64,000 nucleotides of DNA from Bacillota bacterium (GCA_022706785.1 JAKJBW010000001.1:12373-76372); one strand, 5' to 3'. Shown: positions 3,532-22,815, counted from the stretch's first letter. Translations and numbers: made by a program. The notes: generated by a model not told the origin, from the sequence alone.

Positions 3532-3539
3532 GAACGCGG

Positions 3540-4819: not shown

Positions 4820-4894
4820 TTGCTCATCTACTGTAAACGACGGTGATTTTTACACGTAAAGCAAGAGGAAATTACTGTTTAGCTTGACGCACCA

Positions 4895-5158: not shown

Positions 5159-5174
5159 AATAGAAACTCAACTC

Positions 5175-7856
5175 TTATATGTCGCCTTCTTCGGCTGGGT
5201 CTGCTTTTATAATGTTTCTTAGATTTTTTTCGATTCTCTCCATTTCGTCTTTATGCTTTGTGATTTCTTGCAACTTGGAAAAATCAGTTATTACATATTT
5301 TCCTTCGGAGTTCACTTCGTACAAACTATTTGTATAGATTTCTTTTGCGACCTCGCGATTCACACCCATTTTTTGAAAAATGATAATAATATCGTTCATT
5401 GTTCCGTAGTCGATATAATCTGCAATCGTGTTTTCGGGGACATCGGTTTTCAATCCCCTATACAGTTTAACAAACTTAGTTATATAATTGCTTAAACTAA
5501 ATTTTAGCTCGTTTTCAATCTCGTCCATAACTTCCATTATGACATAGTTCTTCGCAACATCGGAATCTTTCCTATACGGCTTTTTTACCCTCTCATACTT
5601 ATCCCAGTATTCCCCATTTTTTTCATACCCGAACATTCTGCCAAAGATTATTTTTGAAAGCCTTTGCCCAGCAATCCAGCGCGAGGTTAATCTCGCATAA
5701 TGGCTTAGGGACTCGGTTTTCTTTTCAACATTACCTATTTGGTCTTTCCTTTCAAATACATCCCAACTGAAAACGTCATAGAGCTTAATGTAAAAATCGA
5801 AAATTTCAGCTGAGTTGCTTTCTATTGCCTGTTTTACTCTTTCTGAGGGCTCGTCATCTACTATATCTTCAATATGAACAATCTTTGGCAAACTAATCTT
5901 GTCAGTTGATATTTCTTCCTTGATTTTATTTACAATTTCGGGAGCAAAACGAATATCGAGAATATCCGCGCTATCAATCTCAATCAGCTCTTTACTTAAT
6001 TGCTCTTTTTCAATCAATGCCGCATAATGCTTATAAATAGGAGAGTTCTTGTCTGAACTTTTTAAGGCAATAGCAAGAACATTGCGATACATTACAAACT
6101 TTGCCAAATCGTCATAACTTTCGCTCTTTTTTTTATTAAAAACGAAGTTCCGGTTAAACAGACTTGTTACAATTTCTCGTTTGCGCCCATCCACCTCTGG
6201 CAACAATTTGTTTGACGATAATATCTGAGAAAAGTGTTTATGATACTCACCAACACTGTCTTGGCTGCAAATATTCAATAAAAAAGCATTGCCCCACAAA
6301 TTATAGCGGATTCTGCCTGCCCTGCCCATCAAGTTTTTAAGCTCTAATGTACTTAGTGTTGAAGTTCCTTTTTTATGTGACAAAACAAAAACATTGACGG
6401 CTGGAAGATTTACCCCCTCCAATAGCGTCGAAGTGCAAAATACTATATCTATTTTCCCGTTTTTTATGAGGTCTTCAACCGACCGCCTAATCTCCGCAGG
6501 CATTATGCCCATATGAAAAGCCACGCCCTTTTTAAGAAGCGGGATTAGGTAATAATCAGCATTGACATCTGATTTTATCTTTTTTATCAACTCATCGACA
6601 TCGCTATCCGAAGGCTTGTCCAATAGATTTTCGGCGTATTGACGGGCGTATTCTACTGCATCTGCCTTAGACTTGCAATATACGATTGTCGCTCCCCTTT
6701 TTGTCTGCTCACAAACAATATCTTTCCAATCCTTTTTAATGCAGGCAATAGAAATAATTGTTTTTTCCAAATTGTTATATATTTCGATATTTCCTGTTAA
6801 CGAATCAATAATGAATTGCTTTTGCGATACAGGTGAAAAATCGAAAGCATCCGACCTCGCTATTTCTTGACGATTTTCCTTATACGGGTTTGAAATCAAG
6901 TTCAATAGTTCCTCCGGGTTTTTGGCATACGGTGAAGAAAAAAATACTTTGGCAAGCCGCATTTCCGTGTTCACTTTTTCTAAAATTTTATAGTAATAGG
7001 GCGTCCTACTATCGTTCTCGAAAATCTTCTGCGCCTCGTCAATAAACAAATAGTCGATTTTGGGAACAATCCCATCATTGAACGCTTGTAACAATCTTTC
7101 GGGCGTAAATATCAAAATCTTTTTTTGGCTTCTAAAAAAATGAATTTGGTCAGGAATTGTAATGATTACATAGTTATTACCTTTGAGTTCTCTCTCGTAT
7201 TTGTCCGTCAAATCGTTTTCGATTTCATTTATCAATGCCTTGGTCGGTAAAACCATTACTATACAATCGGTTTCAACTTCTTCAAGTTTTTGAGACAAAA
7301 AATTTCTGATAATATATGTTTTTCCCATTGATGTCGGCGCGGAAAAACTATAAAATTGCATATTACATAGATTTCTAAAAGCCTCTTTTTGTGCATCGGA
7401 AAAGTATTCTGTTTCGTTGTTGGGGACTTTGTTTATCATTTTATCGACTTCTTCAGACAACAACGACAAAAAATCCTCTGACAGCTCCGCTCCGCCCATA
7501 TCTACTTTTTCAAGCCCAGCGTAATTTGATGCGTTTTTAAGAACTATTTTTTGCACGGCGGAAATGTGCAACTTTGCTTCTTCGTTGTCTTCAAAGACAA
7601 ACGATAGCATAATCACAATTTCTTGTGCCAAGTTGCGGTGGAAACTAATTTTATTTGTTACATTTGATTTTGAGAATAAATCTGCATATCGAAGAAGGTC
7701 TTTTATTTCTTGTTGTGTAATTAAATTTACGGGACTAACCGCAAAGGTTCTTGCACCGTAATTTTCTAACAGTTTCGTGTAGAGCGAGCGAAAATAGGCG
7801 TGCTGTTCTGCCGCCGCCAAAATAATATCTCCTTTTGTTATCCTAAATGCGCTCAT
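5175..7856 (-). CDS. hamB: SF2 (Ski2/DEAD-like) helicase, Hachiman HamB-like
   Basis: Motif I APTSMGKT (aa 173-180), II DEAQ (273-276), V TSTLLEGVNLPA, VI GRAGR (511-515), plus a ~330-aa C-terminal extension. It starts 2 nt after the upstream nuclease-like gene. Confidence 0.6.
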   Translation of the reverse strand: MSAFRITKGDIILAAAEQHAYFRSLYTKLLENYGARTFAVSPVNLITQQEIKDLLRYADLFSKSNVTNKISFHRNLAQEIVIMLSFVFEDNEEAKLHISAVQKIVLKNASNYAGLEKVDMGGAELSEDFLSLLSEEVDKMINKVPNNETEYFSDAQKEAFRNLCNMQFYSFSAPTSMGKTYIIRNFLSQKLEEVETDCIVMVLPTKALINEIENDLTDKYERELKGNNYVIITIPDQIHFFRSQKKILIFTPERLLQAFNDGIVPKIDYLFIDEAQKIFENDSRTPYYYKILEKVNTEMRLAKVFFSSPYAKNPEELLNLISNPYKENRQEIARSDAFDFSPVSQKQFIIDSLTGNIEIYNNLEKTIISIACIKKDWKDIVCEQTKRGATIVYCKSKADAVEYARQYAENLLDKPSDSDVDELIKKIKSDVNADYYLIPLLKKGVAFHMGIMPAEIRRSVEDLIKNGKIDIVFCTSTLLEGVNLPAVNVFVLSHKKGTSTLSTLELKNLMGRAGRIRYNLWGNAFLLNICSQDSVGEYHKHFSQILSSNKLLPEVDGRKREIVTSLFNRNFVFNKKKSESYDDLAKFVMYRNVLAIALKSSDKNSPIYKHYAALIEKEQLSKELIEIDSADILDIRFAPEIVNKIKEEISTDKISLPKIVHIEDIVDDEPSERVKQAIESNSAEIFDFYIKLYDVFSWDVFERKDQIGNVEKKTESLSHYARLTSRWIAGQRLSKIIFGRMFGYEKNGEYWDKYERVKKPYRKDSDVAKNYVIMEVMDEIENELKFSLSNYITKFVKLYRGLKTDVPENTIADYIDYGTMNDIIIIFQKMGVNREVAKEIYTNSLYEVNSEGKYVITDFSKLQEITKHKDEMERIEKNLRNIIKADPAEEGDI

Positions 7857-7858
7857 AA

Positions 7859-8833
7859 TTACCCACCTAAAATGCTATTCATTATGTCTGCCTTGTCCGT
7901 CACAACATCATTAAAAGGCAGGAAGAAAACATAATAATCGCAGTTTGTATTTGTCCCCATTTCCGAAATCTTATCAATAATTTTTTGCTTGACTGAATCA
8001 ATATCAGTTTTAACTTTGCAATCAATCGCTTCTTTTGGGGTGGTTGAAATTGCTGTCGGAAATTCAAAGGTATACCCGATAAAAATTCCGAATACGTTTT
8101 CAGTTTCAATACTCGAACTCGCATTTCTATATCCAGGTATAATAATTTGTTTTAAGACTTCTGCTTCCTCCTCCGTTGATACAATTTCAGTGAAAAATTT
8201 TGTGTCAAGCAAGTTGAAGTCCGTGTCTTTACGTGAAAAACACTCGGATAAAGATTGAAAAGCCTCATTTATAGCCTCTGTAAACACTTTTTTCATTTTA
8301 GATTCGCCATAGACTATTTGATATGCTTTATATGTAGGATAGTCTTTGACCATAAAATGAATGCCGTCAAATCCTTTCACATAGTCGTTATTGTTCGTTT
8401 TAATTTCAACCTTGGACAACAATTTTTTTGCCCCTAAAAACCCCTCAAAAAAGATGTAGAGCAATAATTCGCCAAGCTCTGCACCAGCCCCCTTGTCGGG
8501 ATTTCCATCGGCAGGTGAAACAGGTCTTAATTTTTTTATCGCATCGTTATATGCAAGCTGCCATTCCTCGTTTTCTATGCTTTTTGAATAGTTTTTTCGG
8601 TTCAGAACATAGTTTGCAATATTATTTTTTATGAGCCGTTTTAGACCTTCATATTCAAATTTTAAGTTGCTATTATTCAGTGCGTACAGCTTTAGTTTCT
8701 GACAAAGCGTCCCGCCAGCAGGAGCAATATCAATTTCCTCGACAAATCGGAAGCACGACAATAAATCCTTGCCTTTTTGAATCGTTAGCGGCAAAGCATT
8801 TTCAATTATTATCTCAAAATCATTTTCAGACAT
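7859..8833 (-). CDS. hamA: PD-(D/E)xK nuclease-like protein, Hachiman HamA (DUF1837)-like
   Basis: ELGELLLY..GFDGIHF..YGESKMKK gives an E/D/ExK layout. AAAGGAG sits 8 nt before the ATG at 8833 (MSENDF..); the longer listed ORF would overlap hsdR. Confidence 0.55.
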   Translation of the reverse strand: MSENDFEIIIENALPLTIQKGKDLLSCFRFVEEIDIAPAGGTLCQKLKLYALNNSNLKFEYEGLKRLIKNNIANYVLNRKNYSKSIENEEWQLAYNDAIKKLRPVSPADGNPDKGAGAELGELLLYIFFEGFLGAKKLLSKVEIKTNNNDYVKGFDGIHFMVKDYPTYKAYQIVYGESKMKKVFTEAINEAFQSLSECFSRKDTDFNLLDTKFFTEIVSTEEEAEVLKQIIIPGYRNASSSIETENVFGIFIGYTFEFPTAISTTPKEAIDCKVKTDIDSVKQKIIDKISEMGTNTNCDYYVFFLPFNDVVTDKADIMNSILGG

Positions 8834-8867
8834 ATCTCTTGCTCCTTTTGACATGGGAATATTTAAC

Positions 8868-11800
8868 TCACTCTGCATATTTCTTAAAATTCTCAGCCTG
8901 TTCAAATATCTCCTTAAACACATCATCATTTGTAACGGGCGGATAGCCGTGCTTGGCGAGGACGAGGATAATATCCACTTTCAACTCTGCTTTAATATCA
9001 TCGCGCCGTGACCAGTCTGTATATTTTGCTTTGTCATCAACAATTATTTTCATTTCTCGCGATAACACAATCAGCTTATCGTGTGAATACTCAAATTCAT
9101 ATTTTTCGGCGATGGAGTTCAATATGTCATAAAATGCTTTTTCTTCAAAATCAATCCCCATACCGACAAACGAACTTTTTTCTGATTTTAATTCCTCAAG
9201 GAGCTTTGCCAACTGGTCGGCAACATCGTCAAGAACCTCATTGGCATATTTTTCATCCTTCCGACGGTTATTGTAATCCTCAATCAGTTTTTTCAAACGG
9301 TCAGCAAATTCCACCCCCTTGATTTTATTGACCTTACGAAACTCCTCAATCGCTTGCGAAAGAAGCTGTTGCAATATCTTTATTTTTGTATTTGGCAGCG
9401 GTATCTTTGCAATTCGCGCCATATATTCATCACTGAAAATATCTATGTCAATATGTTTACCCGTTTCAAACAACGCTTCCACTCCGTCCGCTTGGATTGC
9501 TTCAGCAATCATTTCACGAACACGGGCGTTCATTTGTGTGAGGTCGGGCGCATCACCTTTCGTCAGTTTAAAAAGAATAGAACGAACTGCCACATAAAAA
9601 TGAATATGCTCGCGTTCTTCATCGGAAATGGATTCGCTTGACGCACACAAATCAAATGCCTTTTTCAAACGGCGAACTGCTGCCATAAATCGCAGTTCTA
9701 AATCTTTCGTAAGCTGAACATATTCCACGGCGCGATTCAGGCAATCAAGCTGTTGCTTCGGCGTCCCCGTGAAAAAGTCCGTTTTATTGAAATTATGGAA
9801 CATCTGCGCCAAAACTTCGAGCTGGTCTTTGACAATCGTCACAGACTGCTCGATCCCCTCAAATTCATCTGCGGTAAAGTTTGTGTACTTAGCAAGCGCT
9901 TTGTTCATATTGTTTTTGATACCGATATAATCAACAATCAATCCCTTTTCTTTGCCTTCATAAACACGATTAACACGGGAGATTGTTTGGATAAGCGTGT
10001 GCTGTTGAATCGGTTTATCAATATAAATCGTATCAAGACAAGGTACATCAAAGCCTGTCAGCCACATATCCACGACGATTGCTATTTTGAAATTCGACTT
10101 TGCCTGCTTGAACTGTCGGTCAAATTCCTTGCGGTCGTCTTTTGTGCCGAGCATATTGTATAATTCTTTGACATCGTCCTTATTTCGGGTCATCACCATT
10201 TGAACTTTGGGTGATGCTTTTAATTTTTTTCGTTCATCATCGGTCAACGCTACATCGTCATCACATATTTTTGCCTCAGCCCATTTGGGACGCATTTCAA
10301 TGATGATTTTATATAGGTCATACGCGATGGTGCGGTTTGAACAGACAAACATCGCTTTTCCCGCGACGGTTGCGCCCTCGCGTACACGAGTTTCGTAATG
10401 CCGGGTAACATCAGCGGCAACGGCTCGAAGCCTGTCCGGATCGCCGATAATTACGTCAAGGTGAGCGACAGCTTTTTGACTTTCTTCAATCTGATGCTCA
10501 TTTGCGCCCTGCGCTTCGCATTTTGCATAGTATTCCTCAATTTCACGCAGACGTTCTTCGTTCAATGTGACTTTCGCGGCACGTCCGTCGTAAACAAGAT
10601 TAACTGTGATTCCGTCTTTTACAGATTCGGTCATCGTATAGCTGTCTACAACCGCGCCGAAAACATCAATTGTCGCATCTATCGGTGTTCCCGTGAACCC
10701 GACATATGTGGCGTTCGGCAGGCTGTCATGCAAATATTTAGCGAAACCGTAAGAACGCAGAACGCCCTCAGCTTTGATAACAACCTTTTGGTCGAGATTT
10801 ACCTGTGAGCGGTGTGCTTCATCCGATATGCAAATAACATTATATCGGTCGGTCAGCAGTTGCGTGTCCTCGGTGAATTTTTGAACTGTGGTTAAATACA
10901 CGCCTCCGCTTGTGCGTCCTTGCAATTCGGTCCGAAGTTGCTCCCGCGATTCAATGCTGATAACCGTATTATCGCCGATATAATCTTTCGACGCTACAAA
11001 TTGCGTCGAAAGTTGGTCATCCAAATCTGTACGGTCAGTAATAAGCACAATCGTGGGGCTTTTGAGAAACATATCCTTCATCAACAACCGCGTCAAAAAT
11101 AGCATTGTAAAGCTCTTGCCGCAACCGGTCGCTCCGAAATATGTACCACCCTTACCATCTCCGTCCGGGCGAAGGTGTGATTTTATATTCCCAAGCAGCT
11201 TTTCGGCGGCGAAATATTGCGGGTAACGGCATACTACTTTCAGATCGTTTTTAGCATTATCGGGGAAATATATGTAATGTTTAACCACTTTCAAAAAGCG
11301 GTCTTTACGGAAAAGTCCTTTGACCATACTAACAAGCGAAGGAATCCCGTCAACCTCCGGCGCGTCATCGTCGATTTTACGCCAAGCATAGAAATAATCA
11401 TACGCTGCGAATGAAGAACCGTATTTATTGTTCGCGCCATCGCTGATAACGATAAAAGCGTTATATTTAAACAATTCGGGAATATCCCGTTTATATCTGA
11501 TAGTCAACTGGTCATACGCGTTGGCGATAGTCGTGTTCTCCTTAACCGCGCTTTTAAATTCCAGCACCACAATCGGAAGCCCGTTTACATAGATAATAGC
11601 GTCGGGAATACGCAGTTCATATCCCTGTATTTCAACTTGATTTACAATTTTAAATATGTTGTTATCGGGATTTACAAAATCTATCAGTTCAACGAGAAAA
11701 TCCTTTTGTGCTCTGTCTTCGCGGTTGAGAATGAAACCGTTTTGAATCATCTTGAAAGCCATTTTGTTCGCTTCATATACCGAGCCGGATATAGAACGCA

Positions 11801-11999
11801 GCATGAGAAAGATGCTGTCGATTTCGTTTTTGGTAATACCTTCGGCGGCATAGTGGTCGGCAAGGTAAAGGCGCAAATCATCGGCAAGAAGCACATCAGA
11901 TTTCTCCCGATGCATCTCATCGCCGCGAACATGGGTATAGCCCGCCTCCGTGAACATTTCTATAATTGCTGTTTCCAATGCCTGTTCATTAAATTCCAT
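8868..11999 (-). CDS. hsdR: Type I restriction enzyme R subunit
   Basis: 1043 aa. Walker A GATGCGKSFT, DEAH box ISDEAHRSQ, and a typical HsdR N-terminal nuclease region and C-terminal helical domain. Confidence 0.9.
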   Translation of the reverse strand: MEFNEQALETAIIEMFTEAGYTHVRGDEMHREKSDVLLADDLRLYLADHYAAEGITKNEIDSIFLMLRSISGSVYEANKMAFKMIQNGFILNREDRAQKDFLVELIDFVNPDNNIFKIVNQVEIQGYELRIPDAIIYVNGLPIVVLEFKSAVKENTTIANAYDQLTIRYKRDIPELFKYNAFIVISDGANNKYGSSFAAYDYFYAWRKIDDDAPEVDGIPSLVSMVKGLFRKDRFLKVVKHYIYFPDNAKNDLKVVCRYPQYFAAEKLLGNIKSHLRPDGDGKGGTYFGATGCGKSFTMLFLTRLLMKDMFLKSPTIVLITDRTDLDDQLSTQFVASKDYIGDNTVISIESREQLRTELQGRTSGGVYLTTVQKFTEDTQLLTDRYNVICISDEAHRSQVNLDQKVVIKAEGVLRSYGFAKYLHDSLPNATYVGFTGTPIDATIDVFGAVVDSYTMTESVKDGITVNLVYDGRAAKVTLNEERLREIEEYYAKCEAQGANEHQIEESQKAVAHLDVIIGDPDRLRAVAADVTRHYETRVREGATVAGKAMFVCSNRTIAYDLYKIIIEMRPKWAEAKICDDDVALTDDERKKLKASPKVQMVMTRNKDDVKELYNMLGTKDDRKEFDRQFKQAKSNFKIAIVVDMWLTGFDVPCLDTIYIDKPIQQHTLIQTISRVNRVYEGKEKGLIVDYIGIKNNMNKALAKYTNFTADEFEGIEQSVTIVKDQLEVLAQMFHNFNKTDFFTGTPKQQLDCLNRAVEYVQLTKDLELRFMAAVRRLKKAFDLCASSESISDEEREHIHFYVAVRSILFKLTKGDAPDLTQMNARVREMIAEAIQADGVEALFETGKHIDIDIFSDEYMARIAKIPLPNTKIKILQQLLSQAIEEFRKVNKIKGVEFADRLKKLIEDYNNRRKDEKYANEVLDDVADQLAKLLEELKSEKSSFVGMGIDFEEKAFYDILNSIAEKYEFEYSHDKLIVLSREMKIIVDDKAKYTDWSRRDDIKAELKVDIILVLAKHGYPPVTNDDVFKEIFEQAENFKKYAE

Positions 12000-12022
12000 G
12001 CCGCTTTTACCTCCTTGGGTCG

Positions 12023-13015
12023 TTATCCCAAATATCGCCGATGCGCGATTTTCACATTATTTTGATTTACCATTGCGTAGTGCATAGTCGTATCAATTTT
12101 CACATGACCGAGCAGCCTTTGTACCTGCTCAATAGGCATCCCTTTGTCAATTGCCACCGTTGCCAGTGTTCGTCGGAATCGGTGGGGATGCACCTTGGCG
12201 ACTTGTGCCTCTTTTCCGAGTTTTTGAAGAACCCGCTCCACGCCGCTGATTGTCAGCCGGTTATACGGCGACTTGCTTGATATAAACAGCGCGGGATCAT
12301 TGTCAGTCCGTTTTTCCAAATATTCCGCCAGATGCAGTTTAGTCCGTGCGTCGAAATAAACCTCCCGCTCGCTTTCGCCTTTGCCGAATACGATACACGA
12401 CCGTTCATTAAAATTAATGTCCGTACGGTTCAGCCGCACCAATTCGCCGACGCGGACTCCCGTTGACACGAGGATTTCCACAAGCGCGAGATTACGGAGA
12501 TTTCCGCAAGTGTCCCGCAAAACTTCTAAATCCTCATCCGAAAACGCTTCCTTGATGATCTTTGCGGTTTTTACCTTGTGGATTCGCCGGACAGGGCTTT
12601 TTACGATATAATCCTCATCCTCCAGCCAAGAGAAGAAACTTGAAAATATCCGGCGAATATTATCAATCGTAACCTTGCTCGAACGGTTCTCCTGCTGATA
12701 TTTTGCGAGATAGCCGCGCAAATCGTCGGTGGTGATGTCTTTGACCCACTTGCCCAGCGCAATCATCAGTTTTGTAATCGTCGCCCGGTAGTATTCCAGC
12801 GTTTTTTCGGAACAGCCCTCTACACGCTTCGCTGCTATAAAGCTTTTGAGGAAATGCGCGTTTTCTTTCATGTCGTCCAAATCCTGATTTGTCTGTTCCG
12901 TTACCGCCGCCCTTGCAAGCTCGCGACATAATACATTTTTCAATTCCTCCGCCTGCCTGCTGTCGATAATCCCTGCCATGCCGTGCAGGATGTTCCTGAT
13001 AAATTGCTCTTTCAT
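12023..13015 (-). CDS. Tyrosine recombinase (Xer/integrase-like) embedded in the R-M locus; likely hsdS invertase
   Basis: 330 aa. Contains ..HPHRFRRTLAT..LLGHVKIDTTMHYA.. (R-H-R-Y). Lies between hsdR and the invertible hsdS region. Confidence 0.85.
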   Translation of the reverse strand: MKEQFIRNILHGMAGIIDSRQAEELKNVLCRELARAAVTEQTNQDLDDMKENAHFLKSFIAAKRVEGCSEKTLEYYRATITKLMIALGKWVKDITTDDLRGYLAKYQQENRSSKVTIDNIRRIFSSFFSWLEDEDYIVKSPVRRIHKVKTAKIIKEAFSDEDLEVLRDTCGNLRNLALVEILVSTGVRVGELVRLNRTDINFNERSCIVFGKGESEREVYFDARTKLHLAEYLEKRTDNDPALFISSKSPYNRLTISGVERVLQKLGKEAQVAKVHPHRFRRTLATVAIDKGMPIEQVQRLLGHVKIDTTMHYAMVNQNNVKIAHRRYLG

Positions 13016-13068
13016 TTATTTGCTGCCTCCTTGTGTTTTTTCGGCGTTGCCGCCATATTTATTGCACA

Positions 13069-13092
13069 AGGTCAGCTAAATGATAATTTAGA
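13069..13092. repeat. hsdS recombination repeat, copy d (plus-sense QLNDNLE)
   Basis: GGTCAGCTAAATGATAATTTAGAG, identical to 14228-14251. Lies just past the hsdS stop. Confidence 0.85.
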
Positions 13093-13095
13093 GAC

Positions 13096-14205
13096 TTAGG
13101 AAGATGTCAACTGAGAAAGTAGTGTTGTTTGTAAGCGTATAAGCTGTTTAATCTCCTGTTTAATCTCGGATATATTAATAAAAAGAGGCTCACATATCAT
13201 CGCAAAGTCATTAAGAGAATTTAGTGTTGGTACTAAAATGATTGTCTTTTTGAAATCAGGAACCGTAATCTGCTGCTGTGATGTACCCGTACTATTCATT
13301 AACGAATTTTTCAAGTAGAAGTATATATACTTCGCTGAGATAACAGTTTTTTTCGGGACTACTGATATAAGCCTGACAATGGGTACATAGGGCTGCTCTC
13401 GCAAAAAAACATATCCGACTGTACCTCTTGCAGAAACAGTAACACTTTCCTCGAATATTTTAGCTTTGTTTGTATATCCGTAAAGTCCTTCATCAGATAT
13501 TCCGTTTGAATAGATTGGTATTTGGCATTCTTCGGTAAAAGTCTCTTTGAAAACTAAAGGTCTATCTCCGCCAGCACTTAATTCCGCTACTTTTTCAAGT
13601 GTTAGAAATTGCCAGCCTTTAGGAAGCACGGTTTTGTTCTTCAAGTAGGCATCAAATTTATACTTGAAAACTGTTTCTGCCGTAGCCTCTAAATTATCAT
13701 TTAGCTGCCGTTTCAATGCGATTCGGTCGGTTATTGCCTGATGCGCTTTGACAACCGCCTTTTGCTTATCGAGCGAGGGAACGGGCAGCTTCATACCGCA
13801 AAAATCGTCCCAAGTCATACTTCCGCGTACCCCGCCTACACCGAGGAAACTGGCTTCACGGTCAAATTCAGAGCGTTTGAACCACATCGCAAGGTACTCC
13901 GGCATCAGTTCTTGCGGATCTGTGACCTCAAAAACATGATAAGCAGGCGACACTATGGCAACTTCGTAGTCAGCAAGGCGGTCGATGGGAATCTTTTCAT
14001 CACGGCTGACCTGCATAAGGCTACAAGCAAACTGATTTTTCCGAATGACCTTATACTTAGTCAAGTCTGTGCCGATGGTATTTGCTACTGAGGGCATAAA
14101 GCGCTTGTTTATGCTCACACCAAGTAAAAGCGTTGCCTGTGAATCAGTGTTCCGCTCATCTACGGGTCTTATATAGTCCCTTATTGGAGTGTAGTTTGTG
14201 TGCAT
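13096..14205 (-). CDS. hsdS: Type I R-M specificity subunit, full length (TRD1-b + TRD2-b)
   Basis: 369 aa with two target-recognition halves separated by the conserved RQLNDNLEATAE, and a C-terminal coiled-coil QLIRLQTTLLSQL. Confidence 0.9.
   Translation of the reverse strand: MHTNYTPIRDYIRPVDERNTDSQATLLLGVSINKRFMPSVANTIGTDLTKYKVIRKNQFACSLMQVSRDEKIPIDRLADYEVAIVSPAYHVFEVTDPQELMPEYLAMWFKRSEFDREASFLGVGGVRGSMTWDDFCGMKLPVPSLDKQKAVVKAHQAITDRIALKRQLNDNLEATAETVFKYKFDAYLKNKTVLPKGWQFLTLEKVAELSAGGDRPLVFKETFTEECQIPIYSNGISDEGLYGYTNKAKIFEESVTVSARGTVGYVFLREQPYVPIVRLISVVPKKTVISAKYIYFYLKNSLMNSTGTSQQQITVPDFKKTIILVPTLNSLNDFAMICEPLFINISEIKQEIKQLIRLQTTLLSQLTSS
13677..13709. repeat. hsdS recombination repeat, copy c (inside the full hsdS, minus-sense)
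   Basis: 13677-13707 is a perfect 31-bp reverse complement of 14231-14261. Confidence 0.85.
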
Positions 14206-14227
14206 AGGTCTTCCTTTCCGCTGAACT

Positions 14228-14261
14228 GGTCAGCTAAATGATAATTTAGAGGCTACGGCAG
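14228..14261. repeat. hsdS recombination repeat, copy b (plus-sense)
   Basis: Direct repeat of 13069-13092 and inverted repeat of copies c and a. Confidence 0.85.
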
Positions 14262-14785
14262 GGGCTTTGTTCACCGAAATGTTCTTGGGGTCAGATAGCG
14301 GTGTAACTGGGAAACTATCCGACCTTATGGACTTCAAAAACGGTAAATCACGACCCGACGACAGTGGTCAAATACCTGTTTATGGTGGCAATGGAGTGTT
14401 GTCCTACACGAATATCTTCAATGCTACTAACGTAGTAGTCATAGGGCGAGTTGGCGCATATTGCGGGAGCCTTTATTTGGAGTTTGGAGATTGCTGGATA
14501 AGTGATAATGCCATCTATGCCAAATCCAAACTTTGCCCCGATGAATACTTCGACTACTTTCTGCTTAGAAGTCTGTCAATAGGCGATCACCATATTGGAA
14601 CGGGACAACCGCTTCTGACACAAGGCATACTTAATTCGGTTGAAGCACCTATTCCAAGCGTTAAAGATATTGGCAAATTCAACAGCAACGCCAAACCGCT
14701 CTATGACAGAGTTGTGAGTAATCACACTGAAATAGAGGCTTTGAGCAATATGCAGGGCGTACTGCTTGCCAATCTCGCCCGTTAA
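14231..14785 (+). other. Silent inverted hsdS half-cassette (TRD2-c), promoterless
   Basis: The plus-strand frame reads QLNDNLEATAGALFTEMF...VLLANLAR*. It begins in the conserved repeat and has no start codon or SD of its own. Confidence 0.8.
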
Positions 14786-15298
14786 ATTATCATTTAGCTG
14801 CCTTAAATGCCTAATCCGCTTCTCGATGGTGTCATACGCCAAAACAATCCTTTTCTGCTCATCAATATCCGGCACGGGCAGCTCGACTTTGCGCAATTCA
14901 TCCCAGTCAAAAATCTCGCGGACACTGCCGTGGCTCTTAAAACGGGCATAACGGTCAAACTCCGGGCGTTTAAACCATAACATCAAATATTCCGGTAACA
15001 ATTTCTCTTTATCCGCCACCTCGAAAACAGTATAAATATTGGAAACAAGCCCTTCTTCCCAATCTTGTAATAACGCAATAGCAATACGATCGCCGCGGCG
15101 AGAGGTGTCAGGAACGTATGTAAACTGACCTTTTTGCACAACTTTATATTTTGAAAAATCTGTACCAACCGTATTCGCAATAGATGGCATAAAATATTTT
15201 TGCGTGGTCACACCGAGCAAATTTTCTTCTTTGCCCGCAGTGTTCCGCAGATCAATCGGTTGTATGTATTGTCCAAGCGGTTTATAATTCGATTTCAT
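14576..15298 (-). CDS. hsdS: hsdM-proximal hsdS, currently TRD1-a only, running into the antisense of the silent cassette
   Basis: The first ~165 aa are a good HsdS TRD ending in RQLNDNL. The remaining ~75 aa (TGEIGKQYALHIAQSLYF..) are antisense of 14576-14785. Its start overlaps the hsdM stop. Confidence 0.75.
   Translation of the reverse strand: MKSNYKPLGQYIQPIDLRNTAGKEENLLGVTTQKYFMPSIANTVGTDFSKYKVVQKGQFTYVPDTSRRGDRIAIALLQDWEEGLVSNIYTVFEVADKEKLLPEYLMLWFKRPEFDRYARFKSHGSVREIFDWDELRKVELPVPDIDEQKRIVLAYDTIEKRIRHLRQLNDNLTGEIGKQYALHIAQSLYFSVITHNSVIERFGVAVEFANIFNAWNRCFNRIKYALCQKRLSRSNMVIAY
14783..14806. repeat. hsdS recombination repeat, copy a (in the hsdM-proximal hsdS, minus-sense)
   Basis: TAAATTATCATTTAGCTGCC. 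The 18-bp core TAAATTATCATTTAGCTG is shared by all four copies. Confidence 0.85.
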
Positions 15299-16850
15299 AT
15301 CCCAACTCCTTAAATACGGCGAGCAAGTCGGATTTCGACTGTTCCTCCGCGATTAGCAGCTCCCGCAGTTCCGACTGAAGCGTTTTCATCTTGGTATCAA
15401 AATCAATGTTTTCATCGCGGTTGATAAATTCAATATAACGGCTTGGCACGAGAGTGAAGCCCTTTTCGGCGATTTCATCATATGTCGCGTTGTAACAGAA
15501 CTCCGGCACATTCTCATAGCTTTCTTCATACCCAACCTGCTGCCACGCATGATAAACATCGCAGACCTTTTGGCGGTCGGTTTCCGTAAGCTCCACGAAT
15601 TTCTTTTCATAGGGTGAACCCATTTGGCGCAAATCCATAAACAGTATTTCACGCTGGCGGTCGCGATACTTTTTCAACTTTCCATTTTGTTCAACAGTAC
15701 GGGCGGTTTTGTTTTTATTTAAAATCCAAAGCGTCACGCTTATGTCGGTAGTGTAAAACAGACTACGCGGCAGGATGATAATTGCTTCGACAAGATTGTT
15801 TTCAATAAGCTGTTTGCGTATTTTCAGCTCGGTTCCGTCATCTGAAAGCGCACCGTTGGCAAGAAGAAATCCCGCTACGCCATTTTGTGATAGTTTGGAA
15901 ACGATATTGAGAATCCACCCATAATTGGCGTTGCTCGTAGGCGGCACTTCATAGCCGCTCCAACGCGGATCGTCGGTTAGTTCATTATCAGCTCGCCATT
16001 CTTTTTGGTTAAAAGGTGGGTTCGCCATGATGAAATCGGATTTCAAATCCTTATGCTGGTCATTTGAAAAGGTGTTCGCCGCTTGCTCACCGAGGTTTCC
16101 GCTGATGCCTCGAATAGCGAGGTTCATTTTGGCGAGCTTATATGTGGTGTTTGTATATTCCTGCCCATAAATAGAAATATCGCGGGTGTTGCCCTGATGG
16201 CTTTCTATAAATTTGATTGACTGCACAAACATACCGCCGGAACCGCAGCACGGGTCATAAATCTTACCTTTATAAGGCTCAATCATTTCGGCAATCAGGT
16301 TAACGATACATTTTGGTGTGTAAAACTCACCCTTGCCTTTTCCTTCGGCAAGCGCAAATTTTCCAAGAAAATATTCATACACACGCCCGATGATGTCCTG
16401 TTCCGCATCATCAGTATTGATTTTATTGATTTCATCAAGAAGAGAAGCGAGCTTGGCGGTATCAATATGTAAACGGGAATAATAGTTATCCGGCAGCGCG
16501 CCTTTAAGCGACGGGTTGCTTTTTTCTACAGTGAATAATGCGGTGTCTATTCGCAGGGCAATGTCGTCCTGTTTCGCGTTTTCCATGATATATGACCAGC
16601 GGGATTCGGCAGGGAGAAAGAACACGTTTTTCATCGTATAAAACGCGTCCATATCAAGATATTGCTCCTTGCCCTCGCCAATAAGCTCCTGACGGCGCAC
16701 TTCAAATTTATCACTGGCAAATTTCAAAAAAAACAAACTCAAAACAACGTGCTTGTACTCAGCAGGCTCAACAGAACCGCGAAGCTTGTCCGCTGATTTC
16801 CAGAGAGCTTCTTCCATCGTGATTTCTTTTTTCGCTTTAGCAACAGCCAT
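15282..16850 (-). CDS. hsdM: Type I R-M N6-adenine methyltransferase subunit
   Basis: DPCCGSGG (AdoMet-binding) and NPPF motifs, with HsdM N-terminal domain LWKSADKLRG. Start taken at MAVAKAK (ATG at 16850), overlapping the fic stop as TAATG. Confidence 0.9.
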   Translation of the reverse strand: MAVAKAKKEITMEEALWKSADKLRGSVEPAEYKHVVLSLFFLKFASDKFEVRRQELIGEGKEQYLDMDAFYTMKNVFFLPAESRWSYIMENAKQDDIALRIDTALFTVEKSNPSLKGALPDNYYSRLHIDTAKLASLLDEINKINTDDAEQDIIGRVYEYFLGKFALAEGKGKGEFYTPKCIVNLIAEMIEPYKGKIYDPCCGSGGMFVQSIKFIESHQGNTRDISIYGQEYTNTTYKLAKMNLAIRGISGNLGEQAANTFSNDQHKDLKSDFIMANPPFNQKEWRADNELTDDPRWSGYEVPPTSNANYGWILNIVSKLSQNGVAGFLLANGALSDDGTELKIRKQLIENNLVEAIIILPRSLFYTTDISVTLWILNKNKTARTVEQNGKLKKYRDRQREILFMDLRQMGSPYEKKFVELTETDRQKVCDVYHAWQQVGYEESYENVPEFCYNATYDEIAEKGFTLVPSRYIEFINRDENIDFDTKMKTLQSELRELLIAEEQSKSDLLAVFKELGYEIEL

Positions 16851-17779
16851 TATATATTTCCTCCCAATATCCTCAAATACTGTTCCAGTCGCTCGTCGAC
16901 ATATCCGGAAATCAATTTTATCATCTCTCCGGCGTTGCCGTCGCAATAGTAGGCGTCGAATGCGTCGTAATACTTTTTTCTGTCGGTGAATTTTATGTTA
17001 ATCGCCGGGTATCCGTTTCGGAGCAAATCGAGGTTCAATATAAGCCGTCCGGTTCTGCCGTTGCCGTCCACAAAGGGATGAATACCCTCAAAGTCTAAAT
17101 GAAATCTTGCGATGCGCTCAATTGGGCGCATTGTTTTTTTATTTTGCTCGTTTTTTCGAATCAACTCGTTCATTTGCGGTTCAACCAAATACGGCTGTGG
17201 TGGTTCATGCACAGCACCCATAATTTTTACCGGAATGCGGCGGTAAACACCTTTGTCATCAGGTCTGTCCATCAAAACAAGAGAATGAATTTGTTTTATT
17301 TCATACTCTGTAATGGACTTGCCATCTGAAACAAGGCTTTGTATATATAAAAAGGCATCTTTATGACCGACGGCTTCTAAGTGTTCTTTTAAAGGCTTCT
17401 GGTCAATGGTTACACCCTCTAAAACCAATGCCGTTTCTTGTAAAGTCAGGGTGTTTCCCTCAATCGCATTAGAGTTATAAGTAAACTCCACAAGAAATTC
17501 ATCCTGCAACCGCTGAAGTTCACCTTTTGTGAAAGGACGGCGTTTGTGGAGCTCCGCTTTTTTTGCATCTATATTTAAAAACAGCATAGCAAAAGCGCCC
17601 GAAAGGTCTTTGCCTCTGAGCGTTCTGCCGTCAATCGGCTTCGGAGCATTTTCCGGAATCATATACAGCTTACCTTTTTTTATTATGCCGGATATTTTGT
17701 TTTCAGCACATAAAATGCGGACTCTTCGCGGTGAAAGCCCCCATTTTTCAGCAGCCTGCGATACTTTTATATAGTCCAT
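16850..17779 (-). CDS. Fic/DOC family protein with an N-terminal HTH
   Basis: Canonical Fic motif HPFVDGNGRTGR. N-terminal excisionase/MerR-like HTH (YIKVSQAAEKWGLSPRRVR). GGAGG lies 6 nt before the ATG at 17779. Confidence 0.85.
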   Translation of the reverse strand: MDYIKVSQAAEKWGLSPRRVRILCAENKISGIIKKGKLYMIPENAPKPIDGRTLRGKDLSGAFAMLFLNIDAKKAELHKRRPFTKGELQRLQDEFLVEFTYNSNAIEGNTLTLQETALVLEGVTIDQKPLKEHLEAVGHKDAFLYIQSLVSDGKSITEYEIKQIHSLVLMDRPDDKGVYRRIPVKIMGAVHEPPQPYLVEPQMNELIRKNEQNKKTMRPIERIARFHLDFEGIHPFVDGNGRTGRLILNLDLLRNGYPAINIKFTDRKKYYDAFDAYYCDGNAGEMIKLISGYVDERLEQYLRILGGNI

Positions 17780-18046
17780 TCTGAACCTCCGCATATAGAC
17801 GCAAATTAATATAATTTATTATACGCCATTTCGGGAATAATATCAAGTGATTTCTTCAAGTTTATTTAAAATATATCCAAATATTATTCCCCAAAAAACT
17901 TTAATATCCCTTTTTCTCTCGTTTATATCTTTTCATTTGACGAAAAATATGATAAAATAAACAATACAAACGGGAACAGTTTAATACAAACAATGTCGTT
18001 TATAAATAGAATAGTATTAAAACAACTGAGAAAGGAGGCAAACCGA

Positions 18047-18925
18047 ATGCCAATATTAATAAAAAGACCGACTGGAGAAACCACGCCGCTCGTAAACGGT
18101 GAATATTTATCCGCATATTATTTCTTCCCGAAAGATTTGTTGATTAGGTGCGGTCACGAAATCGCTTCAATTTCACGAGTCCCCGGTCGGGCTGTTCATG
18201 AAAAACAATCAAGAGAAGTTATTGAAAGTGATCTTTTTCTTTTGTTAATGATAGACGGTTTTTCGCATCTAACTTGGCCATATATGGGTATAAAAGGGAA
18301 GAAAGAAATTTATTCCGGATACGATCCCGCATGGCGGCTTTCTCATTCGCCGTCGTTTTGGGTTCAGGAATTACTTGACAGAAAGATTATTCCCGATCCG
18401 GTCACGCTACTAAAACTGCCATGGGAAGACGGGGTTTCTTATATGTCTTGGGAAAGAGTATCGGATATAATGAGCCGTCTTGTCCCTAAAGTAATGGAAA
18501 AACACAATATGTACGGAATAATCGCAACCGCCAAAGAATTTCGCTGTTTTGAAGATTTTGACACACGTGACAGCAATCAAAAAAGAGATTTTATGAGGAA
18601 ATGGTATCACACTCGCACCCGACACCCTATCGTTTCTATCGAGGAAGCACAAACAAATGAGTCCGATGAATTTATATCCTACGACTTTCACGATGAACGT
18701 CAAGATTTTGAAGACGAAGTATGTGGGAAGATGCTTATTGAGCACTTTGAATTTAAAATATCGGAAAAAGATTTTGATATTTTAACCATGAGAATGAATG
18801 GAAAGACATATGAGGAAATAGCGAAGAAGTTGGGATATAAAAATCATAGCGGTATTATAAAACGCATTAAACGGATTGCCGAGGCTTATCTCGATTTTTG
18901 TGAGGACAATAAAATAGATTATTAA
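18047..18925 (+). CDS. Protein with a C-terminal sigma-70 region-4/LuxR-like HTH; probable mobile-element regulator
   Basis: C-terminus LTMRMNGKTYEEIAKKLGYKNHSGIIKRIKRI. The N-terminal ~230 aa are unassigned. AAAGGAGG precedes the ATG at 18047. Confidence 0.55.
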   Translation: MPILIKRPTGETTPLVNGEYLSAYYFFPKDLLIRCGHEIASISRVPGRAVHEKQSREVIESDLFLLLMIDGFSHLTWPYMGIKGKKEIYSGYDPAWRLSHSPSFWVQELLDRKIIPDPVTLLKLPWEDGVSYMSWERVSDIMSRLVPKVMEKHNMYGIIATAKEFRCFEDFDTRDSNQKRDFMRKWYHTRTRHPIVSIEEAQTNESDEFISYDFHDERQDFEDEVCGKMLIEHFEFKISEKDFDILTMRMNGKTYEEIAKKLGYKNHSGIIKRIKRIAEAYLDFCEDNKIDY

Positions 18926-18950
18926 CCCGCAAGTTTTTCGCTTGCGGGTT
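18924..18950 (+). terminator. Terminator hairpin
   Basis: AACCCGCAAG-7nt-CTTGCGGGTT overlapping the stop codon. Confidence 0.6.
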
Positions 18951-19049
18951 AACTTTTAGATTGAAAAGTTACTTGTAAAATATTATCCGCACATTTGCAG
19001 TTTTTATCGTCTACCAATACAATGATAAACGAAAGGAGCGTGAATACGC

Positions 19050-19436
19050 ATGAATGAATTGCAAAAACACTATACAAACGAGCAAACCGGAATTTCTTAT
19101 GTCTTGGTTGGTGATTATTATTTACCCAATCTTGTCATGTCAAACGAACCGAATTACAAAATTGGGAAGTTCGGGCTTATGAGGCGAAGTTATTTGAAAA
19201 ATCATCGCAAAGGACTGTTTATGAATCTGCTCACCAGCGGAAAACTAAATGAACACCTTTATGGAATCGACCAGACATCACACGAGCGTTTTGAACTTAT
19301 CTGCCAGCAAATGGCGGTAACAGAGGGTGTGACGGAACAACTTAAATCAGAAAAGCAGATGTTGTGGGTTCAAAAAATGCTGAACATCCACAACCGTGCT
19401 CTGGAGATAATTTGTGAGGAGTTGATTTATATATGA
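19050..19436 (+). CDS. TnpV-like transposon-associated protein
   Basis: 128 aa. The pattern GKFGLMRRSYLKNHRKGLFMNLLTSGKLNEHL..EGVTEQLK is recalled from TnpV of clostridial mobilisable transposons. Confidence 0.6.
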   Translation: MNELQKHYTNEQTGISYVLVGDYYLPNLVMSNEPNYKIGKFGLMRRSYLKNHRKGLFMNLLTSGKLNEHLYGIDQTSHERFELICQQMAVTEGVTEQLKSEKQMLWVQKMLNIHNRALEIICEELIYI

Positions 19437-19582
19437 AGATAAAACCTTGCAAAATAAGTATTGACGAGTATGAACGAGGGGCAATTATTAATGCGCTGAT
19501 GGAGCTACGGAATAAATACATATCCGAAGAAAAGCCCATTGATTTTTTAAACGAAGTCATTCTCAAGCTTTGCGGAGAATGA
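19433..19582 (+). CDS. Small 49-aa ORF translationally coupled to the TnpV-like gene
   Basis: ATGA overlap with the upstream stop. Encodes MKIKPCKISIDEYERGAIINALMELRNKY... Below the ORF-track cutoff. Confidence 0.4.
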   Translation: MKIKPCKISIDEYERGAIINALMELRNKYISEEKPIDFLNEVILKLCGE

Positions 19583-19672
19583 TAAAAATTACATAGCACA
19601 AAAGAAATCTACAGGCCGCTTTTAAAAGGAAGGCGGTCTTTTTTTGCGCGCAAAATAAAGGAGATATTCATT

Positions 19673-20071
19673 ATGAACAAATTTAAAGTCACAACAGCAA
19701 TCACTAATGGAATCGTTAAGGAAGCAATTGAGTATGACGGCAGAACTTTTGTAAAACCGTGGTTTACCGGGCAAGCCATTGGTTGGGTACGAGAACGGTT
19801 TGGAGATTGGAAAAATCGTTGCATTCATATACTGCTCATTACGCCGGAAGACTGGAATCTATGGTATACGCTAAAATTTTCAGAAGCTGATCGTTTAGGG
19901 ATTGGAAGCCCGGATATCGGCGCACCTCTGTGTTTTTTAACTTTTGAAAAGCGATGGCACAAACCCGAGAACCTATCGTATAAGATTGCGGAAGGCTGCT
20001 ATTGTGACGAGTATTTGGCTAAGTTTGATCCGCCGGATTTTATGAAAGAAAAAGACTGTCTTATACCTTAA
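19673..20071 (+). CDS. Hypothetical protein (132 aa)
   Basis: Good SD (AAAGGAG) before the ATG. No recognisable motif. Confidence 0.5.
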   Translation: MNKFKVTTAITNGIVKEAIEYDGRTFVKPWFTGQAIGWVRERFGDWKNRCIHILLITPEDWNLWYTLKFSEADRLGIGSPDIGAPLCFLTFEKRWHKPENLSYKIAEGCYCDEYLAKFDPPDFMKEKDCLIP

Positions 20072-20078
20072 CAAGCAG

Positions 20079-20143
20079 GGAACTTGTGTGGCAAGTTCCA
20101 ATCAGCCTGATTTCGGGCTATATCTTTAGGGGCTATCGCCCCT
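20079..20143 (+). other. Candidate oriT of IME-2
   Basis: Two hairpins directly upstream of mobC-relaxase: GGAACTTG-5nt-CAAGTTCC (20079-20099) and AGGGGC-4nt-GCCCCT (20128-20143). Confidence 0.45.
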
Positions 20144-20171
20144 AATACCCCATAATGACAAGGAGGTCAAT

Positions 20172-20525
20172 ATGCAAAAAGAACTACGAATTGAGGCTCG
20201 TGTAACACCCGAGCAAAAAAAGAAGATTGAACAGATTGCAAAAAAATGCGACTTGCCAATATCAGAATATATTCGTCAAAGAGCACTCGGATATTTACCA
20301 AGAACAGTACTGCCAGACGCTTTTTATTTGTTTTACACAAAGCTGTGCGAACTGTGCAATTCCATTGACGGTAAGGTAGATGCAAAAACAGAAGAAAAGA
20401 TTTTGAAACTGATTGATGATATCGGATCAGCGCTTTTCCTTCCTGAAAAAGAAACTGTTGCGCAGGTAAAGGAAGGATGTGCAAAATGGCAACCACAGGA
20501 TTCTGGCCAGTCAAAGGAAAGCTGA
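20172..20525 (+). CDS. mobC: MobC-type relaxosome accessory protein (RHH)
   Basis: RVTPEQKKKIEQIAKKCDLPISEYIRQRALG is a typical MobC N-terminus. It overlaps the relaxase start. Confidence 0.75.
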   Translation: MQKELRIEARVTPEQKKKIEQIAKKCDLPISEYIRQRALGYLPRTVLPDAFYLFYTKLCELCNSIDGKVDAKTEEKILKLIDDIGSALFLPEKETVAQVKEGCAKWQPQDSGQSKES

Positions 20526-21883: not shown

Positions 21884-22815
21884 CAGAAAACACAATTAAA
21901 ACTACGTCCACCGATATTTCGGATTTTTCATTATCTAAAAATATGGAGGACAACACAATGCAAAACGAGCAAATTAAAAATTTATCGCTGTTAAAATTGG
22001 CAGCGTTCGAAAATCATCCATTCCGGGTGACGCAGGACGCAGACTTTCAAAAATTGGTTGACAGCATTAAAGGAAATGGCGTTTTGATTCCTGCTATCGC
22101 CCGACCAAAAGGTGACGGCTATGAATTGATTGCCGGACACCGCCGTAAATTCGCTTGTCAGATTATCGGCATAGAAGAAATGCCGGTACTTGTTCGCGAG
22201 CTAACCGATGAGCAGGCGATTATAGCAATGGTAGATAGCAATGTTCAGCGCGAAAATATTCTACCAAGCGAGAAAGCCTTTGCATATAAGATGAAGTTAG
22301 AGGCGGTAAAACGCCTCCCCGGCCGCCCGAGAAATAATTCGTCCCAAGTTGGGACAAATTTTAGGGCTGATGTTTTAGTTGCCGAAAACACAGGAGAAAG
22401 TCGCAATCAAATCCAACGATATATCCGCCTAACGGAACTAATTCCACAATTGCTCCAAATGGTTGATGACAAGAAAATCGCATTTAACCCAGCGGTCGAA
22501 TTATCATACCTGTCTAAAGAACAACAGAAAATGCTATTGTCAGCAATGGATGCCGAACAGTCAAGCCCGTCACTTTCGCAGGCACAGAAATTAAAGGTAT
22601 TAAGTGGTCAAGAAAAGCTGGACGAGGACGCTATAATGGAGGTCATGTGTGAGCCGAAAGCCAATCAAAAGGAACAGGTGCGAATCCCATATGAAAAAGT
22701 TAAGTCAATTTTGAAAAAAGATATGCAGCCCAAGGAGTTAGAGGATTTTATCTTAAAAGCTGTAACAAGATACCAGGCGTATCTCAACAAACAAAAAACG
22801 GAACAAACACGATGA
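21880..22815 (+). CDS. ParB/Spo0J-like nuclease-domain protein
   Basis: ParB N-terminal box LIAGHRRKFA. ATGA overlap with the relaxase stop. An alternative start lies at 21943. Confidence 0.8.
   Translation: MTENTIKTTSTDISDFSLSKNMEDNTMQNEQIKNLSLLKLAAFENHPFRVTQDADFQKLVDSIKGNGVLIPAIARPKGDGYELIAGHRRKFACQIIGIEEMPVLVRELTDEQAIIAMVDSNVQRENILPSEKAFAYKMKLEAVKRLPGRPRNNSSQVGTNFRADVLVAENTGESRNQIQRYIRLTELIPQLLQMVDDKKIAFNPAVELSYLSKEQQKMLLSAMDAEQSSPSLSQAQKLKVLSGQEKLDEDAIMEVMCEPKANQKEQVRIPYEKVKSILKKDMQPKELEDFILKAVTRYQAYLNKQKTEQTR

Follow-up and report, generated by a model that had tools for sequence, protein, structure and literature searches.

Type I restriction-modification (R-M) systems that are phase-variable generate diversity of methylation and restriction among the cells of a clone; as a consequence, the barriers to phages and mobile elements and, in pathogens, gene expression are altered. 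In the tvr locus of the pneumococcus, hsdS half-genes are shuffled by the tyrosine recombinase TvrR, which acts by excision and reintegration (Kwun et al. 2018, PMC6265443). The TvrR sites are a mid-point repeat of ~18 bp and a tail-end repeat of ~70 bp with a core of ~11 bp in common, all modules lie on one strand, and tvrR is controlled by a phd-doc pair and an attenuator (PMC6265443). TvrR belongs to clade 2 of the inverton-associated recombinases, the clade with the widest phyletic spread, in which hsdS modules occur in mixed orientation, inversions mostly give truncated HsdS, and inversion and excision were both deemed possible (Huang et al. 2020, PMC7672463); as far as the cited literature states, no clade-2 locus has been experimentally characterised for inversion (PMC7672463, PMC6265443). 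Here we describe a Type I R-M locus in a 64,000-nucleotide stretch of DNA from Bacillota bacterium (GCA_022706785.1 JAKJBW010000001.1:12373-76372), called the window below and numbered from its first letter; the source appears to be a gut-type genome. We propose that the locus is likely a phase-variable specificity shufflon of the TvrR-like kind, a clade-2 epigenetic inverton, and as such a member of a known and widespread kind of system.

The whole operon lies on the minus strand, and its genes, target recognition domain (TRD) modules and recombination sites follow one another in this order:

16850..17779, minus: gene for a Fic-domain protein of 309 amino acids, at the head of the operon (Pfam Fic PF02661, E=1.8e-20; also called as a gene in the identical contig L001)
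15282..16850, minus: hsdM, Type I methyltransferase subunit of 522 amino acids (Pfam N6_Mtase, E=1.8e-100, and HsdM_N; gene call in L001)
14801..15298, minus: TRD1-a, 5' half of the hsdM-proximal hsdS (Methylase_S match)
14576..15298, minus: truncated hsdS-A open reading frame (ORF) of the present state, 240 amino acids made up of TRD1-a, QLNDNL and 68 amino acids of antisense TRD2-c
14783..14800, minus: site a, core CAGCTAAATGATAATTTA in gene direction, encoding QLNDNL of hsdS-A
14249..14782, plus: TRD2-c cassette, inverted relative to the operon (Methylase_S match)
14231..14248, plus: site b, in the orientation opposite to a and c; it and site c make up an inverted repeat of 31 bp without mismatch
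13708..14205, minus: TRD1-b, second hsdS, 5' half (own ATG; ribosome-binding sequence GGAAAGGAAG upstream)
13690..13707, minus: site c, oriented as a, encoding QLNDNL of hsdS-B
13091..13689, minus: TRD2-b cassette, at present in sense orientation (Pfam Methylase_S, 2 stretches, E=5.5e-27)
13073..13090, plus: site d, inverted relative to a and c, at present non-coding
12023..13015, minus: tyrosine recombinase of 330 amino acids, Type I R-M-associated (TvrR-like) family (Pfam Phage_integrase, E=2e-31, and SAM-like domains)
8868..11999, minus: hsdR, restriction subunit of 1043 amino acids (Pfam HSDR_N, SWI2_SNF2, T1R_D3-like and T1RH-like_C)

Pfam recognised HsdR, HsdM and, in three ORFs, Methylase_S, with four TRD modules in total. 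TRD1-a and TRD1-b, of 166 codons each, are ~50 % identical to one another; TRD2-b and TRD2-c are ~25 % identical. At present the hsdM-proximal hsdS, whose start overlaps the hsdM stop, is truncated, with TRD1-a running into antisense TRD2-c; the exact 240-amino-acid protein was found in a public protein collection. The second hsdS, hsdS-B, is an intact combination of TRD1-b and TRD2-b encoding 369 amino acids (13096-14205, stop at 13096). Read from site b, TRD2-c is an uninterrupted frame of 184 codons, whose stop codon, TAA, lies in the complement of site a. Site d begins 5 nt past the hsdS-B stop and lies 57 nt ahead of the recombinase start, and the alignments of relatives stop exactly at 13090, its edge. 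None of the four sites encloses the recombinase gene, which is separated from site d by 57 bp and from hsdR by 23 bp. A sequence-only reading of this DNA had called two TRD1 and two TRD2 modules with a tyrosine recombinase adjacent, and both calls were borne out, the first by the Methylase_S matches in all modules and the second by the Phage_integrase match (E=2e-31) 57 bp from core d. To that reading we add that the present hsdM-proximal hsdS is truncated, that TRD1-a is fixed, that excision is possible, and that the recombinase is outside the sites.

The 18-bp core (CAGCTAAATGATAATTTA in gene direction, also given as TAAATTATCATTTAGCTG) occurs exactly four times in the 64 kb with 0 mismatches and in alternating orientation; as TAAATTATCATTTAGCTG it is found at 13073-13090 (-), 13690-13707 (+), 14231-14248 (-) and 14783-14800 (+). 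The chance expectation over the same length is 0.01, and a fifth copy was absent from the 64-kb window even when 2 mismatches were tolerated. The minimal 14-mer TAAATGATAATTTA was likewise restricted to these 4 places (64 kb, 1 mismatch tolerated). A repeat finder returned b and c as a perfect 31-bp inverted pair (13677-13707 / 14231-14261), b and d as a direct 34-nt match of 88 % containing an exact 24-nt run, and a and c as direct copies with 20 nt in common. The number of copies, the orientation of a and c as opposed to b and d, and the 31-bp and 24-bp pairs had all been read from the sequence beforehand and were reproduced. The claim that the core encodes the QLNDNL of HsdS also stood: it does so in frame within the TRD1 modules of both hsdS genes (sites a and c). 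The core-to-core segments had been put at ~520-580 bp, which agrees with TRD2-c (534 bp) and TRD1-b (523 bp); TRD2-b, at 599 bp, is slightly longer. When the 4 copies were aligned in a common orientation, their flanks diverged and the edges of identity were sharp at the 18-bp core. Within this core lies the near-palindromic site TAAAT-GATA-ATTTA. Each hsdS has one copy in its central conserved region (a or c) and each TRD2 is followed by one copy just past its end (b or d), all four having the core in common, and, as read from the asymmetric centre, the tail-end copies (b, d) are inverted relative to the mid-point copies (a, c). Because of this order of modules and sites, each TRD2 cassette is bracketed by inverted site copies, a/b for TRD2-c, which is itself inverted relative to the operon, and c/d for TRD2-b.

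We propose that the recombinase (12023-13015) acts on the four copies of TAAAT-GATA-ATTTA and that recombination between oppositely oriented sites would invert the intervening DNA. Exchange between a and b would flip TRD2-c into frame with TRD1-a and convert the truncated 240-amino-acid product into a 350-amino-acid HsdS; exchange between c and d would flip TRD2-b out of frame, and exchange between b and c would flip TRD1-b. Exchange between a and d would flip the whole block and, followed by a further flip, would exchange the two TRD2 cassettes. By analogy with TvrR (PMC6265443), the direct pairs a/c and b/d can also be expected to allow excision and reintegration, in which DNA between same-orientation sites would leave as a circle and might reintegrate at another site. 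A clonal population would then hold cells with differing HsdS, including states with half-HsdS only, and as the HsdS proteins differed so, therefore, would the methylation and restriction specificities. Because it lies outside all sites, the recombinase itself would never be inverted or excised. Switching in this strain, and the specificities themselves, are what we infer; the anatomy, the frame-keeping junctions, the homology of sites and recombinase and the natural rearrangements of relatives were observed.

Enumeration of the inversions between oppositely oriented sites gave 16 arrangements, which include all four TRD1/TRD2 combinations as well as truncated forms, just as the sequence-only reading had anticipated with its four full-length specificities and half forms; several of the 16 states yield truncated products only. 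Since no site lies upstream of TRD1-a, this module is never moved and is always fused to the hsdM operon, and in all 16 states it is hsdM-proximal. The combination TRD1-a with TRD2-c is a single inversion away (a × b); TRD1-a with TRD2-b requires two or more inversions, or a single a × c excision between direct sites, and a forward-strand TRD1-b with TRD2-c is two or more inversions away. In half of the 16 states TRD1-b is opposite in strand to the operon (among them 2 of the 4 states with TRD1-b and TRD2-b, 2 of the 4 with TRD1-b and TRD2-c), and therefore its products may not be expressed from that orientation. The a × b junction keeps the frame, TRD1-a being joined to TRD2-c across the core in an ORF of 350 amino acids. 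Thousands of natural HsdS proteins of 350 amino acids aligned with the predicted protein from end to end (100 %) at 62-66 % identity, and one natural HsdS was 81 % identical to it; one full-length match was a Faecalibacterium prausnitzii protein present on 382 contigs.

More than 575 relatives of the recombinase at roughly 60 % identity or more were found in species-representative genomes, with hosts in the Bacillota, Bacteroidota, Verrucomicrobiota, Actinomycetota, spirochaetes and Methanobrevibacter. Type I genes lay no more than 6 kb from the recombinase in 39 of the 39 informative loci, defined as those with at least 3 kb of flank on both sides of the recombinase. About half of the loci contained the strict motif TAAAT-N4-ATTTA, typically in four copies of alternating orientation spaced by 550-750 bp. 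The central tetranucleotide was constant within a locus and variable between loci (GATA/TATC, CATC/GATG, GATT/AATC, CATA/TATG). Its uniformity within each locus fits the overlap (crossover) region of a tyrosine recombinase, for which the partner sites must match; coding constraint alone would not produce a centre that is uniform within loci and variable between them. That the repeats are mere conserved coding sequence was rejected, as d is non-coding, the edges of identity are sharp and the central 4 bp are uniform per locus. Among 62 site pairs the two reading directions of the cassette were equally frequent (left site, 29; right site, 29), and among loci oriented by the recombinase the split was 21:15.

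One could suppose that any rearrangement arises from RecA-dependent homologous recombination between the short repeats, the recombinase being uninvolved. Some rearrangement of pneumococcal hsdS does persist without a dedicated recombinase, at long repeats (PMC6265443, PMC6620402). The repeats here, however, are merely 18-31 bp, and at short pneumococcal repeats TvrR was needed and the residual excision was RecA-independent (Kwun et al., PMC6265443). The family-wide co-occurrence of recombinase and site, together with the per-locus uniformity of the central 4 bp, points instead to site-specific exchange, and we regard the RecA explanation as extremely improbable.

Natural rearrangements were found in three sets of relatives. 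In the first, L052 (S. mitis) and L053 (S. pneumoniae strain 291) have flanks at least 99 % identical and differ by an inversion of 6265-6958 that runs exactly from site to site. In the second, L133 and L088 have flanks that are 99.9 % identical and sites identical to those of the window, and the L133 HsdM is 82 % identical to the window's; L088 is without a segment comprising cassette 1, the recombinase and TRD1', and its remaining cassette is flipped into frame. Both inversion and excision at the sites are therefore needed to account for the difference. The third, L171, is the closest informative relative, with the same site and identities of 89 % in HsdM, 83 % in TRD1-a and, at the amino acid level, 79 % in TRD2-c. 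Over hsdM and TRD1-a L171 and the window are colinear; the TRD2-c cassette of L171 is reversed exactly between sites, 8500-9071 aligning in opposite orientation to window positions 14232-14800. As the L171 cassette is flipped into frame, it therefore encodes the full-length protein that a × b would make here. The claim that hsdS half-genes are shuffled is thus supported by comparison with relatives using the same site, and the outcome that would have told against it, repeats that are simply conserved coding sequence with no rearranged alleles in related strains, is not what we found: L171, L052/L053 and L133/L088 are all rearranged.

These comparisons also bear on the view that the locus is a frozen relic, consisting of two hsdS genes and an inverted TRD2 stranded by an earlier rearrangement, with repeats kept for the sake of QLNDNL and a recombinase that is inactive or otherwise used. 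Consistent with such a relic, a single arrangement is on record for the exact sequence and the core is coding in 2 of the 4 copies. Yet site d is non-coding and is identical over 18 bp with a sharp edge, the inverted TRD2-c keeps a 184-codon frame with 79 % identity to an expressed orthologue, and the recombinase keeps its catalytic-motif regions and comes from a family seen, in the 39 informative loci, nowhere but beside Type I genes; moreover, site-bounded inversions separate near-identical genomes of relatives. We therefore consider a relic improbable.

Somewhat less easily set aside, although still rather unlikely, is that shuffling proceeds mainly by circular excision and reintegration at the direct sites (a/c, b/d), as in tvr, with inversion rare or incidental. 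The direct pairs do exist (a/c with 20 nt, b/d with 24 nt), this is the TvrR mechanism (PMC6265443), and L088 resembles an L133-type locus minus an excised segment. On the other hand, TRD2-c is inverted and the cassettes of the family occur about equally in both orientations, which excision and reintegration alone could neither generate nor resolve; clean inversions separate L052 from L053 and L171 from the window; and, in contrast to tvrR, the window recombinase would not be carried along on the circle. The one mode does not preclude the other, and a shufflon that inverts its cassettes remains the reading that we prefer.

Several further observations were made on the relatives. L052 and L053 are also unrelated at the upstream TRD1 (5752-6264) and downstream TRD2 (8530-9175) positions, a mismatch that indicates module replacement between close relatives. 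The second hsdS of L171 has two same-orientation sites 125 bp apart (9599 and 9724, in the region 9599-9760), the second of which is followed by the apparent end of an inverted TRD2-c-like cassette before the contig ends at 10111; the close pair suggests a further cassette or an excision scar. In L008, L024, L028 and L050 the whole contig, of 1.6 kb, is the recombinase gene alone, with inverted copies of the site precisely at its two ends (in L008, a terminal inverted repeat of 54 bp). This is the pattern expected where assemblers break at the edges of a repeat-flanked, possibly invertible recombinase segment.

The recombinase protein is nearest, among solved structures, to XerA and XerD, and the Xer-type catalytic-motif regions are present between residues 188 and 313 (RVGE 188, GKGE 211, HRFRR 278, GHV 303, MHY 311). 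Peptides derived from the tvrR primers, GMRVGE, DARTKI and IAGVEIR, match its residues 186-191, 222-227 and 256-262; over these three primer-derived peptides only, which make up 19 residues, 14 of 19 are identical, in the same order and spacing. The streptococcal recombinases of L052 and L053 are 62 % identical to the window's. We rejected L052 and L053 as the published tvr locus, as the published tvr primers had no match in either of them, and treated them as relatives instead.

Certain points weigh against the proposal that this particular locus switches. The rearranged relatives are 57-62 % identical in the recombinase or, in the case of L171, whose recombinase was not on the contig obtained, ~78 % identical at the DNA level, and what such relatives demonstrate is that the site family recombines rather than that the window copy does. 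At 18-31 bp, the cores are short. That the recombinase may belong to the TvrR clade is suggested by three primer peptides (19 residues) and by architecture rather than by a full-length comparison. Scans for promoters and terminators gave counts not above the shuffled expectation. The identical recombinase occurs on three contigs, and the two that were compared are 100 % identical to the window and have the same arrangement. Finally, six predicted recombinant or alternative truncated HsdS proteins had no exact match in a collection of 15 billion proteins; whereas both present-state HsdS products, which served as positive controls, were found there on 2 contigs each. Because merely 2-3 contigs are on record, this is a weak negative on polymorphism, and the sample is too small to count against switching. 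A metagenome scan for the 18-bp core yielded 88 loci, mostly single-copy and unrelated or distantly related, none of which was the same locus; the best of them had ~76 % DNA identity to the window.

How the locus should be classed was judged by comparison with the described systems. As in the clade-2 epigenetic invertons (PMC7672463), a tyrosine recombinase is encoded within a Type I R-M locus that holds more than one hsdS, in mixed orientations, inversion often gives truncated HsdS (ON/OFF), inversion or excision is possible according to site orientation, and relatives of the recombinase have a very wide phyletic spread. The marks of an epigenetic inverton were found: a Type I locus with at least 2 hsdS (hsdR, hsdM, and Methylase_S in three ORFs); hsdS in opposite orientation with inverted repeats (TRD2-c on the opposite strand, and the pairs a/b and c/d); an invertase homologue no more than 2 kb from the R-M genes (23 bp from hsdR); and an inversion that keeps the hsdS frame (a × b, giving 350 amino acids). 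With the S. pneumoniae tvr/SpnIV locus it shares an hsdS built from 5' and 3' half-gene modules, a dedicated tyrosine recombinase, a short mid-point repeat with a repeat after the 3' module that has a core in common, and a gene of the Fic/DOC superfamily. In contrast to tvr, where all modules are on one strand, TRD2-c is inverted here; the central excisable segment of tvr, between two hsdS positions, carries tvrR along with phd-doc (tvrAT) and an attenuator, whereas the window recombinase lies beyond the sites, downstream of both hsdS genes; the window locus lacks a phd-doc pair and has instead a 309-amino-acid Fic gene upstream of hsdM; and the tail-end repeat of tvr is ~70 bp, as against window repeats of 18-31 bp. 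We did not file the locus as a tvr locus because of the inverted module, the recombinase outside the sites and the lack of a phd-doc pair. As judged from sequence, it fits a clade-2-type epigenetic inverton that would work like tvr and other invertons. The shufflons of SpnD39III/ivr (cod; PsrA/CreX), Bacteroides fragilis, Mycoplasma pulmonis and Enterococcus faecalis resemble it in that inversion reassorts TRDs to give several methylation specificities per clone; their recombinases, however, belong to other clades (1, 3, 4 and 6 in PMC7672463). In addition, ivr has longer inverted repeats and silent partial hsdS genes facing the expressed one, whereas in the window each TRD2 is individually bracketed by a single short site in inverted copies.

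Within its own family the locus also stands somewhat apart. The usual order among relatives is hsdM-TRD1-TRD2-rec-TRD1-TRD2-hsdR (rec, recombinase), that is, the recombinase lies between two hsdS genes (hsdM-hsdS-rec-hsdS'-hsdR); in the window it is instead downstream of both hsdS genes and outside every site, an hsdS-site-rec order that is found as well in the closest relatives, L085, L086, L121, L153 and L016, whose recombinases are 76-85 % identical to it. Mildly new are this placement of the recombinase beyond the segment that recombines, the location of the locus on an integrative mobilisable element beside a Hachiman system, and the site structure that we propose at the level of the family. 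Two readings, that of the central 4 bp as a crossover code and that of a sub-clade with the recombinase outside, go beyond the descriptions in the cited literature; we advance them jointly and tentatively, as possible rather than probable. Were the first true, the whole TvrR-like family would use the 14-bp TAAAT-N4-ATTTA, with a locus-specific centre that keeps co-resident systems apart; the tail-end repeats would be inverted copies of the mid-point repeats, and every TRD2 of the family would be individually invertible, even in loci deemed to use excision only. Were the second true, the shufflon would be self-stabilised, its own recombinase being neither lost nor inverted, and carriage on a mobilisable island would let its specificity diversify after transfer. 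With four identical 18-bp cores, two TRD1, two TRD2 and a recombinase outside the sites, the locus is a clean and compact example; being small and having exact sites, it would lend itself well to studies of how TvrR-like recombinases choose between inversion and excision and of whether partner specificity is determined by the central 4 bp. It also carries a lesson for annotation: a truncated hsdS with an hsdS fragment on the opposite strand beside it need not be a pseudogene but can be one state of a switch.

The end of the Fic gene overlaps the start of hsdM, an arrangement that suggests translational coupling; the Fic gene was not conserved among the related loci mapped. In the pneumococcal tvr locus the Doc (Fic/DOC superfamily) homologue TvrT represses the recombinase. 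The top promoter-like site of the region lies upstream of the Fic gene at 17846-17818 (-), with 11 of 12 matches. Since the scans were at background level, the operon structure, with co-transcription from a promoter upstream of Fic, is one that we infer. Another promoter-like element, TTGACA-16-AATTAT (10 of 12 matches, 13083-13110 (-)), lies upstream of the recombinase, in a scan that overall was not above chance. The 3' end of the TRD2-b cassette holds its -35 box, and site d its -10 box; a flip of TRD2-b would replace the -35 box, and therefore recombinase expression might depend on cassette orientation.

The R-M locus is carried by a larger element:

3327..25534, no strand: ~22-kb low-GC integrated element carrying the R-M locus (tRNA-Arg(CCT), att-like copy, integrase, relaxase)

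The tRNA-Arg(CCT) gene is at 25460-25534, and at 3327-3370 an att-like stretch of 44 nt repeats its 3' half with 86 % identity; GC content is 37-45 % in the first ~25.5 kb of the window versus 48-56 % in the rest. The element contains an integrase (23128-24498) by the tRNA-derived att site, ParB (21811-22815) and a MobA/VirD2 relaxase (20477-21883), besides Fic with the Type I R-M operon, HamA/HamB and an AAA_14/DUF4143 ATPase. At the level of annotation the tRNA-Arg with its 44-nt copy, the integrase, relaxase and ParB and the low GC uphold the earlier claim of a mobilisable element. No type IV secretion system or coupling protein was found among the element's large ORFs scanned, the small ORFs having been only partly scanned. 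Directly downstream of hsdR is a Hachiman pair, HamA at 7859-8929 (-) (Pfam HamA, E=4e-43) and a HamB-like DEAD/Helicase_C helicase of 893 amino acids at 5175-7856 (-), which together with the R-M operon is a defence island. Upstream, another relaxase-integrase pair (42-3029) points to a tandem element, with two elements at tRNA-Arg(CCT); the two have similar stretches of 72-83 %, for example 1481-1566 versus 22953-23038. Another partial duplicate of the tRNA region, of 59 nt, is present at 25580-25638. The element also has a gene at 17993-18925 (+) for a protein of 310 amino acids with no Pfam match, whose C-terminus is helix-turn-helix-like by eye, and an ORF of 128 amino acids at 19050-19436 (+).

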